Shown here: one piece after another, positions 6,862 through 14,163 of the stretch | Position numbering within the stretch: position 1 is the stretch's first letter | Layout: every line of letters begins with the position of its first letter | Sequence record: OM632668.1 | Reading direction: 5' to 3' (one strand) | DNA from: Escherichia phage BEU35 | Length of the DNA: 44,569 nucleotides | Position numbers and translations under genes: made by a program | The notes under the pieces: model-generated | Database searches by the model: none | Seen by the model: the letters and a program-made list of their open reading frames with translations, nothing else | Told to the model about the DNA's origin: nothing

Positions 6862-7274
6862 TGGGCTACTTTGAGGACTTAACAAAAGCGTTTGATGTGC
6901 CGCTGGTAGCCTTCGGAACCACCAACGGCATCAAGGTAGCGCTTGAAAACATCGACGCGCCGACGTCAACAGATACGCCGTATCTGGCAAGTTACATGTT
7001 GCTGGCGGATACCGAGCAGGCTGACTTATTCTTCACGGAACAACGCGCCGGTGTCTATCAGATAGACATTAACTACGCATCGGTGAAAGGTAGCGCGCCA
7101 ATCAATAAAATGGCAGACTTACTTAACACGGCGTTTAAATCAGGTAAGGCATTTTCGCGTAACGACATCTGCGCCGAGGTTCAATCGGTTAGCCTGGGGC
7201 CGCTGATTGTAGAAAACGGATGGGCCAAACGACCATTGTCAATTAACTTTATTGCATTCACCAAGAGGCTGTGA
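6858..7274 (+). CDS. putative tail completion / tail terminator protein
   Basis: Gene order immediately before the tail tube gene. Confidence 0.4.
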   Translation: MMGYFEDLTKAFDVPLVAFGTTNGIKVALENIDAPTSTDTPYLASYMLLADTEQADLFFTEQRAGVYQIDINYASVKGSAPINKMADLLNTAFKSGKAFSRNDICAEVQSVSLGPLIVENGWAKRPLSINFIAFTKRL

Positions 7275-7276
7275 AT

Positions 7277-8443
7277 ATGGCTACAACTCCTTTTAAGGGC
7301 GCGAATACCGCGCAATTCTATGTGGCGGAAACTACCCCGGGCGTAACACCGGCTAACCCTGTCTGGTCGCCGTTGCGTAACACTGGCGGTGTTCCTGCCG
7401 TAACCCGCGATGCGCTGACTTCCAACGAACTAGACGGCAGCCGTGAAACTACATCCATCCGAACCGGTAACAAACAGGTTAGCGGGGAGTACGCCATCGA
7501 ACTTAGCTCTCGTAGCCAGGATGATTTCCTTGCGGGAGCGATGACTTCTACGTGGCAAGCTGGGGTAGAGATTACTGGCGCCGAAATTACGGTCGCCCCA
7601 GCAGGTAAAACATTCACCCGCGCTGCCGGTAGCTTCATTACTGACAGTGTAGAAGTTGGCGACCTTATTGCGTTCACCGACTTAACCGGCGACAACGCAA
7701 AACCGTTTATCGTGACCGCGGTTTCCGCTCTGGTAGTTACGGGCGCAGGTATTCAGCACACGCTGACAGCAGAGACAGTAACTACTGACGCAAAAACTGG
7801 CGACAAGCTGGAAACCGGTAACGCGTGTAAGACGTTCTCCATCCTGACGTGGTTCAAGGGCCAGTGTGGTAACCTGGACGCGTACATGCTGACCAAAGGT
7901 GTGGAAATCTCTGGCTTTACCGTAGAGCAGGCGGTTAACGCCATGGTCACCGGCAGCTTCCCGTTCATCGGCCTGAGTCAGGAGATTCTTACCGCGCCGC
8001 CGTCTGGCTCTGATTTCTCTCAGGTTACGTTCACCGATGAGCCGTTCTCGTCGGTAGATGTGTCGGTGTTCGATGGCTCCACGCCGTTGCGTTGCGATAC
8101 TCTCACCATCACCAACGACAACGGAGCTTCCGCGCAGTTCGAACTCGGTAACAGTAGCGTGGCGTTCGTCGAACGTGGACGCGCAGCTAACACATTCTCT
8201 ATCTCTGGCAAGCTGTACGACATGGCGATGATTCAGAAGTTTATCAACGAGCAGCAGGTAGAGATTAACTCTATTCTGGCAGGGGTAAACGGGGCTATGT
8301 CTTTCAGTTTGAAACGTGCAGAGCTTACGGCGGTTACACCTGAGATTGGTGGGCCTGAGTCAATCACTCAGTCCATTGAAGGCCAGGCTACCGGCAATCA
8401 GTACCAGTCGTCTATCGTAATTCAACGTATCACCTACGCATAA
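7277..8443 (+). CDS. major tail (tube) protein
   Basis: AAGAGG RBS 7 nt upstream of ATG; 389 aa; followed by strong terminator; position upstream of chaperone/tape measure. Confidence 0.65.
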   Translation: MATTPFKGANTAQFYVAETTPGVTPANPVWSPLRNTGGVPAVTRDALTSNELDGSRETTSIRTGNKQVSGEYAIELSSRSQDDFLAGAMTSTWQAGVEITGAEITVAPAGKTFTRAAGSFITDSVEVGDLIAFTDLTGDNAKPFIVTAVSALVVTGAGIQHTLTAETVTTDAKTGDKLETGNACKTFSILTWFKGQCGNLDAYMLTKGVEISGFTVEQAVNAMVTGSFPFIGLSQEILTAPPSGSDFSQVTFTDEPFSSVDVSVFDGSTPLRCDTLTITNDNGASAQFELGNSSVAFVERGRAANTFSISGKLYDMAMIQKFINEQQVEINSILAGVNGAMSFSLKRAELTAVTPEIGGPESITQSIEGQATGNQYQSSIVIQRITYA

Positions 8444-8471: not shown

Positions 8472-9026
8472 TTACAAACCTAATTTTAAAGCAATGTCTA
8501 TAACGTTCGATTTAACGTCACCCGGTATGATGTAGGTGTCGTAATCTTTTACACCACTAACATCGTACAGATAGCCACGGCTATCGCCGATGAACGTATA
8601 GCCGTCACGATGGAGGCGGACGATTCGCACGTCATGCCCCGCGGCGACGATAGGGGCAACTTCACTGGCGAATCCACCGTCGGACACTACAAAAACTTCG
8701 TCGCCGTCAGGCAAGTTTTCAGCAAGATACTTACCGAAATAATCATCGCCGAATACCGGTTTAATGAATTGCTCAGAAATGGCAATCATTAACTGGCGGC
8801 GGGACAACCCATTAAGAAAACCCTCGGGTTTTTCTTTCCGCGCCCGGTCGTCGTAGCCGTCGAGAAATTCGTGGTAAGCATCCTGGCCTAACGCTGCCAA
8901 AGCAATATTGAACATTGGATTCTTGAAACTGGTAGTTCCTTTCGCAAAGCCCATTTCTACCAGCGCCATAGCAAGCGTGTCTTTCCCGCAACCCGCAGGG
9001 CCATTAAGAATAATTACCTTAGCCAT
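8472..9026 (-). CDS. P-loop nucleotide/nucleoside kinase (dNMP-kinase-like)
   Basis: N-terminal MAKVIILNGPAGCGKDT Walker A resembling T4-type dNMP kinase P-loop (SGKDT). Confidence 0.65.
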   Translation of the reverse strand: MAKVIILNGPAGCGKDTLAMALVEMGFAKGTTSFKNPMFNIALAALGQDAYHEFLDGYDDRARKEKPEGFLNGLSRRQLMIAISEQFIKPVFGDDYFGKYLAENLPDGDEVFVVSDGGFASEVAPIVAAGHDVRIVRLHRDGYTFIGDSRGYLYDVSGVKDYDTYIIPGDVKSNVIDIALKLGL

Positions 9027-9514
9027 TATTTATCGCTCCCGTGGGGTTTTAAGTGTGTAGAGTTCCCGTTACAGTCGTATTCGGTAACTGCGTGTGCGGT
9101 TATGCCGAGGTCACGGAAATGCTTTATTACCGCTGGAGAGTCGTCGAACGCACACAAGATTCTTTCCAGTCCGAAAGCACGCAACACCTCTTCTTTAATT
9201 ACGATGTCTTTTCTGTTGTCGTGTTTGCTGCGCATGATTAGCGTGTCAAACCTAACGTTATTCTCTCGTAACCATTCGCGAGTCTCCTCCTCAGCGTCAT
9301 CACTTCGCCCGGTAAGGATAATTATAGTAAGTCCGGAATGCCACAGTACGCTACACAAATGGATATTGTCGTATATCGGAGCGTCATCTTTGCAGGCCAT
9401 GTTAAATGGCTTCCACGCCCACGTTTCTCCGTAGTTATCTTTTGGTAACAGGTGTAAGCGATGGGTACCGTCGGCCAATGTCCCGTCTAAATCGAAAATT
9501 ACAATATCTTTCAT
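9026..9514 (-). CDS. HAD-superfamily phosphatase
   Basis: N-terminal FDLDGTLAD (DxDGT) motif. Confidence 0.65.
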   Translation of the reverse strand: MKDIVIFDLDGTLADGTHRLHLLPKDNYGETWAWKPFNMACKDDAPIYDNIHLCSVLWHSGLTIIILTGRSDDAEEETREWLRENNVRFDTLIMRSKHDNRKDIVIKEEVLRAFGLERILCAFDDSPAVIKHFRDLGITAHAVTEYDCNGNSTHLKPHGSDK

Positions 9515-10641
9515 CCCAGCATCTCCGGTGAAATAGTTAAACGTGCGACCTCGCCATATTCGGCGCTATAAGTAATTACATTTGCACTGCGGCCCGACAT
9601 CCATCCGCCGCGAGAGGCGTAGGCGTCTTTAGCCGCTAAGGTGCGGTGTTGCTCAACAATCATGTTACGGCTTTCTACAATCTTCTGGTGGTGCAGATGG
9701 CCTACGTGGGCGTAGCTGTAAACACTCTCGCCGAACGCTTTACGGAACTTGGCAATCATAACCGGTTCGATAGCGTCGAATCGTGCTTTATGCCCGTGAT
9801 GGAAGAACAGCGTCGTTTTGCCGTGTTGCACCATCTTGTAAACATCCGGCGACGTATCGACGAACACGCGCGGCTCATTGTCGTACAGCGTACTGAACAT
9901 CTCAGCCAACCAAATCATACCCGATTCGTCGTGATTCCCTTGCACGATAAGCAAGCGAACATTTTTATGCTTAACCAACGCCATATCAACGACACGGCGG
10001 ACCATACGAATCATGTAACGGACCAGTTTCTGATAGCGCGTGTCAGCGTCAAGGACATGACCGCTTGCGGGCGTAACGGCATCAAGACTATCGAAGTGCG
10101 CTAAGTCACCAAGAAGATTGATAACCCCAGTACCGGCATCCGGTGCTTTCTGGAATGCTGCATCGAACCAACGAGAGAACAGGTCTTCCGCAATCTTCAT
10201 GTCCCAGTCGTCGCCGCTCTCGTCGGCCCAGGCCAGCATACCGAGATGGAAATCGGATACAGTGTAAAGATTGAGCAGCTTATCGTCCCGTTTGGCACGA
10301 ACGGCTTTAACAGGTGCAACGGGCGTAATCTCCGATTTCATGCCTTCGATCACGGCTTTCATCAATTCAACCTGACGTTCGGCGTCAGTGTCGGTCTTAA
10401 CCCATTGCAACTTAGTGTTGCCGAACTCATCCACCAGTGACGACGTTCCTTTAATCTTATAGCCGTCCGGGACAAGGTGGCTAACATCACGTCCGTGACC
10501 TACACCTTTCTTAGCCAGCTTCGCTTTACGGATACGAATTACGCGGTCTGAGATGCCGTATTTACGGGCGATGTCTACATTCTTCATTCCGGCGTTCAAT
10601 TCTTCCTGTAACTGTTCGTCGGTTATTTTCTTCCGGGCCAT
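9511..10641 (-). CDS. metallophosphoesterase (calcineurin-like) with N-terminal helix-turn-helix
   Basis: Motifs SDFHLG, GDLAHFD, GNHDE, HVGHLHH in canonical order; N-terminal HTH-like segment. Confidence 0.7.
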   Translation of the reverse strand: MARKKITDEQLQEELNAGMKNVDIARKYGISDRVIRIRKAKLAKKGVGHGRDVSHLVPDGYKIKGTSSLVDEFGNTKLQWVKTDTDAERQVELMKAVIEGMKSEITPVAPVKAVRAKRDDKLLNLYTVSDFHLGMLAWADESGDDWDMKIAEDLFSRWFDAAFQKAPDAGTGVINLLGDLAHFDSLDAVTPASGHVLDADTRYQKLVRYMIRMVRRVVDMALVKHKNVRLLIVQGNHDESGMIWLAEMFSTLYDNEPRVFVDTSPDVYKMVQHGKTTLFFHHGHKARFDAIEPVMIAKFRKAFGESVYSYAHVGHLHHQKIVESRNMIVEQHRTLAAKDAYASRGGWMSGRSANVITYSAEYGEVARLTISPEMLG

Positions 10642-10679
10642 GCTTACTTCCTCGTGTTTAGGATTTGTCTTATAGTAGC

Positions 10680-10871
10680 CTACTTCTCTTTCACGTTCGA
10701 GTTACAAGCCCAGATTAAAATGAATACCCACGGCAACAGAACCCACCCGAGAAATAAGTTAGCCATGAATATCGCTAGCTTTGCTTTATGGTTTCGCATA
10801 TGGGCCACAAAAAACGGGATAAAATAAACGCCTACAACAATAATTAAAAAGAACATAGCGATACCGGTCAT
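10680..10871 (-). CDS. small membrane protein (two predicted TM helices); start taken at internal ATG with AGGAG RBS
   Basis: Hydrophobic segments FFLIIVVGVYFIPFFVA and LFLGWVLLPWVFILIWA. Confidence 0.45.
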   Translation of the reverse strand: MTGIAMFFLIIVVGVYFIPFFVAHMRNHKAKLAIFMANLFLGWVLLPWVFILIWACNSNVKEK

Positions 10872-11049
10872 AACATAACTCCTGATTTGAGATAACATCG
10901 TTGGTGTAAGTGAATAGTACGCTATTATATTGGGGAGTGCAAGTAGTGTGCTAGAATAATTTTGCGCCTAGTGTCGCACACGAAAAGCGGGTGGTTCCCG
11001 TCTGGCGCATTTCCTTTAACCAGTAACCTCTTAACCAAAGGATTAAAGA

Positions 11050-11466
11050 ATGAAACTTTCTGATTTTTATTACGAAGCGGAAGCCGAAAAGGGCGCACGT
11101 ATGCCGATACCGCTAAAAGACGGTACTGATTCCGGGGAATGGCTTAATGTTGTTTCTCCTGAGGCGGACGTTGCCGTTAAGGCTATGCGCGCGTTCACCC
11201 TTGCATACCGGGCAGTATTAGGGAAATTAAAACCGCTTCGTGATAAGTGCGAAGAGATGAAAGATTTCTCTGAATACAACCTGAAGATGGAAGACGCGGC
11301 GACGGACCTTAACCGTCAGTTAGCGATTGAATTGGTTAACGGGTGGAGCCTTGACGACGAATTCAATAAAGAGAATCTGAACACACTCCTGACGCAATAT
11401 AAACGACTCGCGGAACTTGTTGTTGTGTTTCATAACGAACAACTGCACCAGCTACAGGAAAAGTAG
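11050..11466 (+). CDS. tail assembly chaperone (G-like)
   Basis: Immediately upstream of tape measure gene; downstream ORF open in the -1 frame. Confidence 0.55.
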   Translation: MKLSDFYYEAEAEKGARMPIPLKDGTDSGEWLNVVSPEADVAVKAMRAFTLAYRAVLGKLKPLRDKCEEMKDFSEYNLKMEDAATDLNRQLAIELVNGWSLDDEFNKENLNTLLTQYKRLAELVVVFHNEQLHQLQEK

Positions 11467-11471
11467 ACGCG

Positions 11472-11831
11472 TTGCTCCAGTTCGCCCGTTGGAACTTCAT
11501 AACCCGCCACAAACGGCGGGAATTTGACAGTATCGCCGATGGGCATAAAGCCGCGCTAATTGCTATGGGGGTTATGCAAGACGCGCCGGATGCAACGCAG
11601 GCCGCTGGGCCGGAATGCCCCCCTGAGCTATTAACCACATTTGAGAAGTACAGGGAAATTAAATTCACCCGCCGAGTGGACGACGACGGCATCAAGATGT
11701 ACCCGCGCGAGCAATTACGATGGTCAGATTTAGTGGCGTACAGCACCGTTTCAGGCCAGAATATAGGGATGTTCGAATCCGACATCATCATGAGCTTAGA
11801 CGCTATTTTCGAGGGTAGAAACGATGGCTGA
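11472..11831 (+). CDS. tail assembly chaperone extension (T-like), probably made as a G-T fusion by -1 frameshift
   Basis: Open in -1 frame from 11436, overlaps the G stop and the tape measure start. Confidence 0.45.
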   Translation: MLQFARWNFITRHKRREFDSIADGHKAALIAMGVMQDAPDATQAAGPECPPELLTTFEKYREIKFTRRVDDDGIKMYPREQLRWSDLVAYSTVSGQNIGMFESDIIMSLDAIFEGRNDG

Positions 11832-14163
11832 TGTAGCTAGTTTAGTAGTAAAAGTAACAGAGCAAGGCGCGAAAGCCACATCAGACCGTCTTGACAACCT
11901 TTCAAAGTCCGCAAAAGTAGCGGGGGCCGCCGTAGCAGGCCTTGCTTCTATCGTAGCGGCTACCGCGTATAAAGCTGCCCAAGAACTGGTTGACTCACAG
12001 CGGCAACTGGACAAGATGTCCGCCAGTTTGAAGACCTTAACAGGAAGTACCCAAGGTGCTAAACAGGCGCTAAGTATCCTGCAAGATTTTGCCCGCGATA
12101 CCCCATACGGACTGGAGCAGGCGGTGGAAGGCTTCCGTAAGCTGGTGGCCCTTGGCCTTACCCCATCCGAGGAGGCGTTGCGGTCCTACGGCAATACCGC
12201 ATCGGCTATGGGCAAGGACCTTAATCAGATGATTGAGGCGGTAGCCGACGCCAGTACGTTTGAGTTCGAACGCCTAAAAGAATTCGGCATCAAAGCCAAG
12301 CAGAACAAAAACGACGTAGAGTTTACATTCCAGGGGACAACAACCGTAGTTAAGAAAAGCGCTGCCGATATTGAGCAGTATTTACTTAATATTGGTAACG
12401 TAAATTTTGCCGGTGCCATGGCGGACCAGGCCAACACCCTTAATGGCGCTATCGCGAGCGCCAGTGACTCATGGTCGCAGCTAAAAATGACGCTTGCCAC
12501 CAGTCTTGATGTTGGCGCACTTGCGGAACCTATCAGGTATATCGATGACTTGATCCAGGAATTAAACGCGTCTGTTGCTTCCGGTGAATTAGCCGCTGAA
12601 ATGCAGATGTGGGGCGACATAGCGTCGGAAGTAGGAAGCGCTATCGAGATGTCATTCGACGCTGCGTTTGGCTTTGTTGGTGATGCCATCAACGGGCTTA
12701 ATGAACTGTGGGATTTCAGCAGCAAGAGTATTACCGATAGCGGAGAACAAACGGCCACCACCATCGCTGAATCCGCCGCCGATGCTCTTGACTTCATCGC
12801 GGAAGAGTTCACCGCGATGGAGAGATTCTTTGAAGATATGGTTAAAGGTGCTCAGGACGCTGGCCGTCTTGTACGCGCCGCTTTTACCCCCGGGGAATCA
12901 GTAGACGTAGCTAAAAATATCAACTTCCAGCTTGGCATGGCTTTGGATACCCAGCGCGATGTCGCCGACGTTACGCGTAAAAGTTTCCGCGAACAGGTAG
13001 AAGCTCAACAGGATATTGTAGCGTTAAAACGCGCGGCGTATGACATCGATAAGGAGTCCGCAAAAGCTGAGGGGTTAAACAAATTTAAGGTAACCGGAAC
13101 CGGCGGCGGTTCTGACGATGACGGGTCAGCCGCAAAAGCCGCTAAGAAAGCAGCGGACGCGTTCGAGCGCCAGAAAAAGGCGGCGGAAGACTTCTACTAT
13201 CAGTCAATCCATCTTAATGATGACGTATTTCAGAAAATAGAAGCTAACCAGGAAGAGCAACTGTCTAAGTTGCAGGATTTTTATAGCAATAAGCTTCTTA
13301 GCGACCAACAGTACGAAAACGCCAAGACGCAGATTATGCTCTCTGCCGAACAGGCCCGCCAGGAAGAACTGGACAAGAAAAGGAAAGAAGCCCAGGAGAA
13401 GCAGCAGAAAGGTGATGATTTCATGGCTCAGATTATGGGCCAGAACGCCGCTGAGCTTGAGCTTCTCGACATCCAGGAACAGCAGAAACTGGCGGTCGCA
13501 GATAAGTACCGTGAGCAAGGGCTTATTAGTGAGAAGCAGTATCAGGCTGCGCTTAATGCCATCAACGAGCAGTACGCCACGAAGCGTGCCGACGCAACGG
13601 CAACGGCCTTCGGTAACATGGCCTCAAACATCGGGTCTGCGTTGGGCGAAGCCTCTGGTGCGTATAAGGCATTCGCTATCGTACAGGCCACCATAGCCAC
13701 TTACACCGCGGCTATCGAGGCGTACAAGTCCACGGCGGCTATCCCTGTAGTTGGCCCATTCCTGGCTCCTGTAGCTGCCGCCGCTGCCGTTGGGGCGGGT
13801 ATGGCGCAGATTTCCGCTATCAGGTCCGCACGTGAACAGGGCGGACAGTTATCCGCGGGGCAGGCTTCAACCATCGCCGAACGCGGTAAACCAGAAGTTA
13901 TCATGCCCGCTGGTGCGTCACGTGTACGCACCGCACAGCAGATGAAAGAAATTATGGGGCAAAACGGGTCTTCTTCCGGACCGTCTAATGTTACTATCGT
14001 AAACAACACGAGTTCTCAAATCGGCAACGTATCCACTGAGCAAGATGATGAAGGCCGTTTGCGTATCATCATCGAGGAGCAAGTGGCTGCCTCTTTGCAG
14101 AACAGTAACAGTAAGATTAGCAAGGCCCGCAAGGCCACAAGAAATGCGCCGGGGTTTAAATAA
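11824..14163 (+). CDS. tail tape measure protein
   Basis: 779 aa, long alpha-helical/coiled-coil composition, Gly/Ala-rich segment, position after G/T. Confidence 0.8.
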   Translation: MADVASLVVKVTEQGAKATSDRLDNLSKSAKVAGAAVAGLASIVAATAYKAAQELVDSQRQLDKMSASLKTLTGSTQGAKQALSILQDFARDTPYGLEQAVEGFRKLVALGLTPSEEALRSYGNTASAMGKDLNQMIEAVADASTFEFERLKEFGIKAKQNKNDVEFTFQGTTTVVKKSAADIEQYLLNIGNVNFAGAMADQANTLNGAIASASDSWSQLKMTLATSLDVGALAEPIRYIDDLIQELNASVASGELAAEMQMWGDIASEVGSAIEMSFDAAFGFVGDAINGLNELWDFSSKSITDSGEQTATTIAESAADALDFIAEEFTAMERFFEDMVKGAQDAGRLVRAAFTPGESVDVAKNINFQLGMALDTQRDVADVTRKSFREQVEAQQDIVALKRAAYDIDKESAKAEGLNKFKVTGTGGGSDDDGSAAKAAKKAADAFERQKKAAEDFYYQSIHLNDDVFQKIEANQEEQLSKLQDFYSNKLLSDQQYENAKTQIMLSAEQARQEELDKKRKEAQEKQQKGDDFMAQIMGQNAAELELLDIQEQQKLAVADKYREQGLISEKQYQAALNAINEQYATKRADATATAFGNMASNIGSALGEASGAYKAFAIVQATIATYTAAIEAYKSTAAIPVVGPFLAPVAAAAAVGAGMAQISAIRSAREQGGQLSAGQASTIAERGKPEVIMPAGASRVRTAQQMKEIMGQNGSSSGPSNVTIVNNTSSQIGNVSTEQDDEGRLRIIIEEQVAASLQNSNSKISKARKATRNAPGFK

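Follow-up and report, generated by a model that had tools for sequence, protein, structure and literature searches.

A candidate -1 frameshift site of the A_AAG type, set against the G stop codon, in the tail assembly chaperone genes of Escherichia phage BEU35 and its relatives

Overview

The G/GT tail assembly chaperone pair of Kagunavirus very probably depends for its expression on a programmed -1 ribosomal frameshift, which in Escherichia phage BEU35 would take place on the heptanucleotide G_GAA_AAG immediately before the stop codon of the G-like gene (sequence record OM632668.1; the window is the whole stretch of 44,569 nucleotides that was analysed). The majority of ribosomes would translate G, a protein of 138 aa, and terminate at TAG, and a minority would slip one base back on the heptanucleotide, whereby the one tRNA-Lys of E. 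coli would exchange its pairing with AAG for the overlapping AAA. After the slip, translation would continue as GTA GAC GCG TTG to give a 260-aa fusion (...QLQEK-VDALLQF...) ending at the start of the tape measure gene. The conserved core of the signal would be A_AAG followed at once by TAG or TAA, and slow decoding of this stop may bring about the pause for which other sites have an RNA structure downstream. If lambda is a guide, the tape measure protein would be coated by G and by the G part of GT, and recruitment of the tail tube protein would fall to the T part.

Related loci and synonymous analysis

For comparison, 100 related loci were gathered from GenBank phages and IMG/VR contigs, 85 of which were non-redundant family members; counts over relatives refer to these 85 unless stated otherwise. 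Synonymous variation was analysed in 24 sequences thinned to <93% protein identity, in an alignment of 267 columns, and the synonymous difference of a codon was defined as the fraction of same-amino-acid pairs with different codons.

Genome region and reading frames

The identity of region 10900-12100 to its relatives places the BEU35 window in Kagunavirus, subfamily Guernseyvirinae: 99.8-100% to Escherichia phages BEU33, phiEc3 and Golestan, 88-90% to other Kagunavirus phages and ~81% to Salmonella Jerseyvirus phages, which are likewise Guernseyvirinae. The G-like ORF occupies 11050-11466 on the plus strand. Its codons were read directly and end in CTA CAG GAA AAG TAG (Q-E-K, stop), which confirms the stop at 11464-11466 given by an earlier sequence-only reading of this DNA. 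In the -1 frame a TAA at 11433-11435 is followed by an open stretch on the plus strand that reaches from CGA at 11436 to TGA at 11829-11831, the latter overlapping the ATG of the tape measure gene at 11824 (ATGGCTGA); the same reading had described this frame as open from 11436 through a T-like ORF to the tape measure start, and so it is. It had also put the stretch open to shifting at 30 nt; the overlap is there, and 28 nt of it (11436-11463) are usable. In the predicted GT fusion, 11050-11463 is followed by 11463-11828 on the plus strand, and the post-shift part begins with GTA at 11463-11465 and runs to the TGA.

The tape measure gene (11824-14163, plus strand, 779 aa) was identified by the ORF list and by its match to phrog_1538 (E 5e-205), and its ATG overlaps the T-frame stop. 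Only the minority of ribosomes that had shifted would arrive in the T frame, so tape measure initiation presumably relies on its own Shine-Dalgarno sequence and not on coupling. The motif GAGGG is found 9 nt upstream of this ATG (overlap region 11824-11831).

A tail protein gene is encoded on the plus strand at 7271-8443 and matches phrog_290, labelled 'minor tail protein' (E 3e-80). The homologue in Shemara is annotated 'tail protein', and the record of Serratia phage Eta likens its homologue to the putative major tail protein of vB_SenS-Ent1. The product is probably the major tail/tube subunit, which the T domain would recruit. G and T thus have the placement of G/GT pairs, directly upstream of the tape measure gene and downstream of a tail gene, here with four reverse-strand genes in between. 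These genes (8472-10898, minus strand) encode a dNMP kinase, a polynucleotide kinase, a DNA repair exonuclease and a superinfection immunity protein. Because they split the tail module, G would need a promoter of its own; a scan of 10600-11900, around the G start, returned no sigma-70-like promoter. The minus strand also holds an antisense ORF of 142 aa (11363-11791) that is longer than G and overlaps the G/T junction. It bears no sign of being a gene and can displace G in naive longest-ORF calls.

Protein families of the two halves

Tail assembly chaperone domains were found in both halves by Pfam and by PHROG. G scored 32.5 bits against PF08748 (Phage_TAC_4; Pfam cut-off 21.1) and the T part 66.9 bits against PF23812 (Phage_TAC_18; cut-off 27). 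Family phrog_15027 ('tail assembly chaperone', 259 positions) is matched by G over positions 1-138 and then by T over positions 136-259, which indicates a family built from fused proteins. Used as a query against a large protein database, the 260-aa fusion gave five partial matches with no fusion among them. When 71 distinct predicted fusions were aligned, conservation at the protein level set in at the first codon after the junction, with the pattern K, junction, V-x-A-L-[Y/L/F]-x-[F/Y]-A-x-W-x-[F/Y]-[V/I].

These alignments bear on the possibility that there is no recoding at all, the -1 ORF being a decaying or untranslated remnant and G the only product. That account agrees with the fact that no experimental T or GT product is known, and literature searches brought up no report of a GT fusion protein for any member of Guernseyvirinae. 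Set against it, the T frame is open for ~120 codons in every relative, its Phage_TAC_18 match is above threshold, and T is conserved as protein with synonymous variation across lineages whose G proteins are 43-62% identical. A dead ORF is excluded on the grounds of this protein-level conservation and the Pfam match, and we regard it as very improbable.

The shift site in the overlap

No heptamer of the X_XXY_YYZ form, the canonical site of G/GT pairs, occurs in the 28-nt overlap. The sole in-frame slip-prone run there is A_AAG (11460-11463), which is contained in G_GAA_AAG (11457-11463, plus strand); the GGA of this sequence is no homotriplet. Codon reading therefore agrees with the earlier proposal that GGAAAAG just before the stop is the best candidate and that it is not a standard heptamer. 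In the G frame the last two sense codons are GAA_AAG (11458-11463), and A_AAG allows tRNA-Lys to re-pair cognately to AAA, as at sites of the NNA_AAG or Z_ZZN type. In-frame A_AAG has a frequency of 0.3% per codon in the long ORFs of the window, equivalent to ~2.7% for at least one occurrence in a 9-codon overlap; this expectation together with the invariance of the tetramer in 85 relatives places the site beyond chance.

The G stop (TAG, 11464-11466, plus strand) lies directly 3' of the slippery run, which is the placement of a 'shifty stop', and is a candidate stimulator of the shift. Its first two bases, TA, are also part of the T-frame Val codon GTA at 11463-11465.

Conservation of the site among relatives

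The sequence-only reading had suggested a comparison with related phages, and this comparison showed the NNA_AAG hexanucleotide with its adjoining stop in 85 of 85 non-redundant loci. The last sense codon of G was AAG in all of them, against a usage of 555 AAA to 294 AAG for Lys elsewhere in these G genes. The codon before it was GAA in 59, GCA in 17, GTA in five, AAA in two, and GGA and TCA in one each; it ended in A in every case, against a frequency of 22% for third-position A elsewhere in G. The stop that follows directly was TAG in 59 relatives and TAA in 26 (TGA 0), and the base 3' of it was A in 71, C in 13 and T in one (G 0).

Synonymous change is almost absent over the whole block A_AAG_TAR_NN_GCG_YTG. 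In the 24 sequences the synonymous difference was 0 at the NNA codon, 0 at AAG, 0 at GTA, 0 at GCG and 0.16 at YTG, as against 0.55 over the whole alignment. The four-codon windows at the junction had the lowest synonymous divergence of the alignment, 0.015 compared with 0.30 in the next-lowest region elsewhere. The Val codon at the junction was invariably GTA, and another mostly-Val column mixed GTC, GTT, GTA and GTG.

The length of the -1 frame overlap ranged from 7 to 205 nt among relatives. The shortest, 7 nt, was found in two loci (L076 and L080) in which G ends in CTT AAC GCA AAG TAA and the -1 frame reads ACT TAA CGC AAA GTA. In both, the -1 stop 7 nt before the G stop confines any shift to the last two sense codons of G. 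These short overlaps, the invariant NNA_AAG_TAR and the protein conservation of the T frame all speak for the lambda-style G/T arrangement with a non-canonical site that the sequence-only reading had put forward. Its observation of a G/T overlap lacking a canonical heptamer is confirmed, and its interpretation is supported.

Single or tandem slippage

The variable codon before AAG bears on which tRNAs move. G_GAA_AAG differs by one base from the lambda site G_GGA_AAG, and a classical two-tRNA tandem shift, in which re-pairing in the P site matters and the stop does not, is possible if doubtful as the general mechanism. G precedes GAA in 59 of 59 relatives with that codon, after six different preceding codons (CAG, TCG, ATG, TTG, GCG and CTG), and the relative RP180 has the lambda heptamer G_GGA_AAG at the identical position. 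Re-pairing from GAA to GGA would be kept if a central G.U pair is allowed, an idea discussed for similar motifs by the authors of PRFect (PMC10885494). The invariant G fits re-pairing of tRNA-Glu, which can probably move from GAA to GGA through that pair in the GAA lineage, and G_GAA_AAG is thus probably a near-cognate two-tRNA site in this phage. Two metagenomic relatives carry the canonical A_AAA_AAG at the same position.

The P-site tRNA cannot re-pair, however, in the relatives with GCA_AAG (17, with C, A or G before), G_GTA_AAG (five) or G_TCA_AAG (one), in all of which the arrangement is kept, and the loci L076 and L080 are confined to C_GCA_AAG. Tandem re-pairing is accordingly not a conserved requirement. 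The upstream tRNA being unable to re-pair in the C_GCA, A_GCA, G_GTA and G_TCA lineages, the family-wide part of the event would be the slip of a single tRNA-Lys. Re-pairing of the second tRNA may raise the efficiency in the lineage of BEU35 and refines the explanation by a single tRNA-Lys slip more than it replaces it.

The same counts can be held against slippage of RNA polymerase, which would add an extra A on the A run so that the fusion came from an edited transcript; loss of one base from the mRNA at AAAA could likewise change the frame by -1. BEU35 has a run of no more than 4 A, and the GCA_AAG, GTA_AAG and GGA_AAG relatives have one of 3 A; the long homopolymer runs known to sustain productive transcriptional slippage in bacteria are far longer than this. 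Transcript slippage also leaves the invariant final G and the adjoining stop unexplained, and we consider it hardly credible.

Fused or separately started T

Some records contain a stand-alone T CDS of 119 aa that starts from TTG at 11472-11474 (plus strand), as listed among the ORFs of the window and annotated in Golestan and Shashou. On this account T is made alone and there is no fusion: initiation would take place at TTG 11472 through a weak Shine-Dalgarno sequence, AGGA (11456-11459), or by re-initiation after the TAG six bases upstream. Both elements are present in the window, with AGGA 12 nt upstream of the TTG, and a separate 119-aa CDS is annotated in the Golestan, fEg-Eco06 and Shashou records, the authors of the last having chosen not to call a frameshift (PMC6776780). 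Such an independent start is possible in the window's own clade only. The position of the TTG is CTG in 22 of 24 diverged sequences (>7% protein difference), where the first start-like codon comes 4 to 108 codons downstream; among relatives in general, the first T-frame ATG, GTG or TTG is 3 to 108 codons downstream of the junction. The second ORF lies in the -1 frame and overlaps the end of G, and it lacks a start codon that is conserved.

The three codons before the TTG, namely GTA, a variable codon and GCG, are conserved as V-x-A, and GTA and GCG are conserved with no synonymous change. Since the start-like codon varies in position and the TTG is mostly CTG, an independent start cannot explain why the N-terminal part of T is conserved. 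Nor is the AGGA conserved, relatives having TCGGAAAAG or AACGCAAAG in its place, and both TTG as a start and a spacing of 12 nt are weak. In lambda, moreover, tail assembly depends critically on the molar ratio between gpG and fused gpGT (review PMC5009743). Separate production of T is, taken together, an improbable account, and we infer that the GT fusion is made by the frameshift.

Stimulatory elements

AAA and AAG are decoded in E. coli by one tRNA-Lys, and none of the other Z_ZZN tetramers, 16 in all, is as prone to shifting as A_AAG (PMC4066793, PMC5009743). In reporter assays, A_AAG with no stimulator gave ~0.15% frameshifting against a background of 0.11% (PMC4066793). The search for a stimulator covered structure, pairing and sequence motifs around the site. 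RNAalifold on 25 diverse relatives gave no conserved downstream structure (-0.28 kcal/mol, three weak pairs, no compensatory change), and single-sequence folds downstream of the site differed between lineages. In the window alone, 11469-11556 folds with z = -3.1, a fold that is not conserved among relatives. Rfam returned nothing relevant, its one match being at chance level (E 3.9) and well below the gathering score. Upstream, inspection by eye found no Shine-Dalgarno-like element common to relatives, the only one being the non-conserved AGGA that overlaps the site.

Downstream of the site, the sequence GCGTTG (11469-11474, plus strand) begins 5 nt after AAG. At positions 6-11 after AAG the relatives have GCGCTG (65) or GCGTTG (20). 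GCGYTG encodes only Ala-Leu in the T frame, yet its synonymous difference is 0 for GCG and 0.16 for YTG. A search for pairing partners of GCGCUG among relatives gave recurrent but inconsistent positions, none of them conserved, and the pairing probability of GCGCUG was at chance when compared with codon-shuffled downstream sequence (mean percentile 0.50 for 60 nt and 0.37 for 120 nt).

With A_AAG alone near background and no conserved stimulator found, a helping role for the stop is the inference we draw; the 'shifty stop' idea reportedly goes back to Weiss et al. in 1987. More tentatively, and with the odds rather against it, A_AAG_UAR_NN_GCGYUG could act as a compact structure-free signal, in which a weak-context stop read by RF1 and a GC-rich hexamer 5 nt downstream lift the single-tRNA slip to a useful level. 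The stop is never UGA and is never followed by G, and it is on this basis that it is taken as a weak-context RF1-read stop. We know of no description of such a combination of stimulators for -1 frameshifting in phage tail genes.

Within the coding region of T, 39 nt past the shift site, there is a perfect GC hairpin of 6 bp at 11503-11520, CCCGCC ACAAAC GGCGGG. Shashou-like Kagunavirus phages retain it, and in Jerseyvirus phages it is broken (GGCGCA). It was considered as a frameshift stimulator and rejected as too distant from the site and too poorly conserved.

Comparison with known systems

In lambda the slippery site lies several codons before the G stop, and T must be fused to G to function. 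The gene pair described here is of the same kind as lambda gpG/gpGT (Levin, Hendrix and Casjens 1993; Xu, Hendrix and Duda 2004; reviewed in PMC5009743) in that two overlapping ORFs stand just upstream of the tape measure gene, the second of them in the -1 frame and lacking a conserved start, and in that the shift is placed near the 3' end of G, on an A_AAG A-site codon pair with no evident RNA structure needed. The expected outcome would also be the same, namely a low level of a fusion whose G part goes to the tape measure and whose T part goes to the tube protein. The two differ in the site, which is the canonical G_GGA_AAG in lambda and G_GAA_AAG here (A as the second base of the triplet), set directly against the stop. 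They differ also in the Pfam families of the G and T domains, which here are Phage_TAC_4 and Phage_TAC_18, and in the tail tube gene, which here is separated from G by the four reverse-strand genes.

Sites of the NNA_AAG type have been described outside phage tail genes. Those named in the literature covered by the review PMC5009743 include G_CGA_AAG of IS1222 and A_CGA_AAG of B. subtilis cdd (Licznar 2003, as cited there); IS1222 uses its site productively, with an efficiency that depends on the preceding codon (PMC5009743). The NNA_AAG and Z_ZZN sites of E. coli (Sharma 2014, PMC4066793) share with the present one a single tRNA-Lys that moves from AAG to AAA, a variable preceding NNA and the top rank of A_AAG. 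The NNA_AAG cases that have been studied rely on a downstream pseudoknot or hairpin, whereas none is conserved here; the present site has instead a stop that is always adjacent and the GCGYTG block 5 nt downstream. The G_GAA_AAG site is most likely an ordinary phage trick of a recognised, less common class (Z_ZZN tetramer or NNA_AAG hexanucleotide).

Closer to BEU35, K1ind1 (NC_041897, ORF21A/21B) and fFiEco03 (NC_073315, gp25/gp26) have the same gene pair with G_GAA_AAG followed by the stop, and their joined CDS, at 782 nt, agrees with the 260-aa product predicted here. Shemara (NC_069152, gp24/gp25) has the same pair with G_GAA_AAG followed by TAA; its joined CDS, at 779 nt, is shorter by about one codon. 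The joined products of these three phages are known from annotation alone, whereas the nearest relatives Golestan, fEg-Eco06 and phiEc3 carry two separate genes.

In Burkholderia phage KL1, gp18/gp19 likewise have a predicted slippery heptamer immediately upstream of the G stop, with products of 142 and 264 aa (PMC3483164), but there the heptamer is the canonical G_GGA_AAC and the stop is TGA. The KL1 tail protein gp20 is similar to tail proteins of K1G/K1H/K1ind phages (PMC3483164). Among distant relatives of the G family, an IMG/VR contig has A_AAA_AAC adjoining the stop, and Pseudomonas phage Lebethron has T_TTT_TTC.

Two further phages with G homologues 26-30% identical were observed to have no convincing canonical heptamer. 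In Vibrio phage vB_VpS_BA3 (L012, Queuovirinae) the overlap holds only A_AAG tetramers, in G_GTA_AAG and G_CAA_AAG, and in Serratia phage Serbin (L013) it holds C_CGA_AAG tetramers and one A_AAG_GGT of canonical form. A frameshift is annotated in neither record, and G/T sites of the tetramer type may be under-annotated more widely.

Annotation of the gene pair

The missing heptamer is already in print, since the genome announcement of Shashou states that there is 'no canonical slippery sequence' (PMC6776780) and joined 'frameshift product' CDSs are present in the GenBank records of K1ind1, fFiEco03 and Shemara. The database records are in conflict, T being listed as a separate or hypothetical gene from TTG in Golestan, phiEc3, fEg-Eco06 and Shashou. 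The main value of the present comparison lies in consistent annotation: the comparative evidence favours a joined 260-aa GT across the subfamily. The pair would also serve as a natural example of phage G/T frameshifting that can rest on A_AAG and a stop in place of a full X_XXY_YYZ heptamer, a type of site that will escape frameshift finders looking for heptamers only. A small testable question on structure-free stimulation of a tetramer site arises from the conserved GCGYTG block together with the lack of UGA stops.

A minor irregularity was seen in the record of Salmonella phage SS3e (L003/L035, NC_006940.2), in which G is annotated as a truncated CDS of 258 nt. Reading from the aligned start meets an early TGA, which looks like an indel or a sequencing error in the record, and the G_GAA_AAG_TAG junction is intact.
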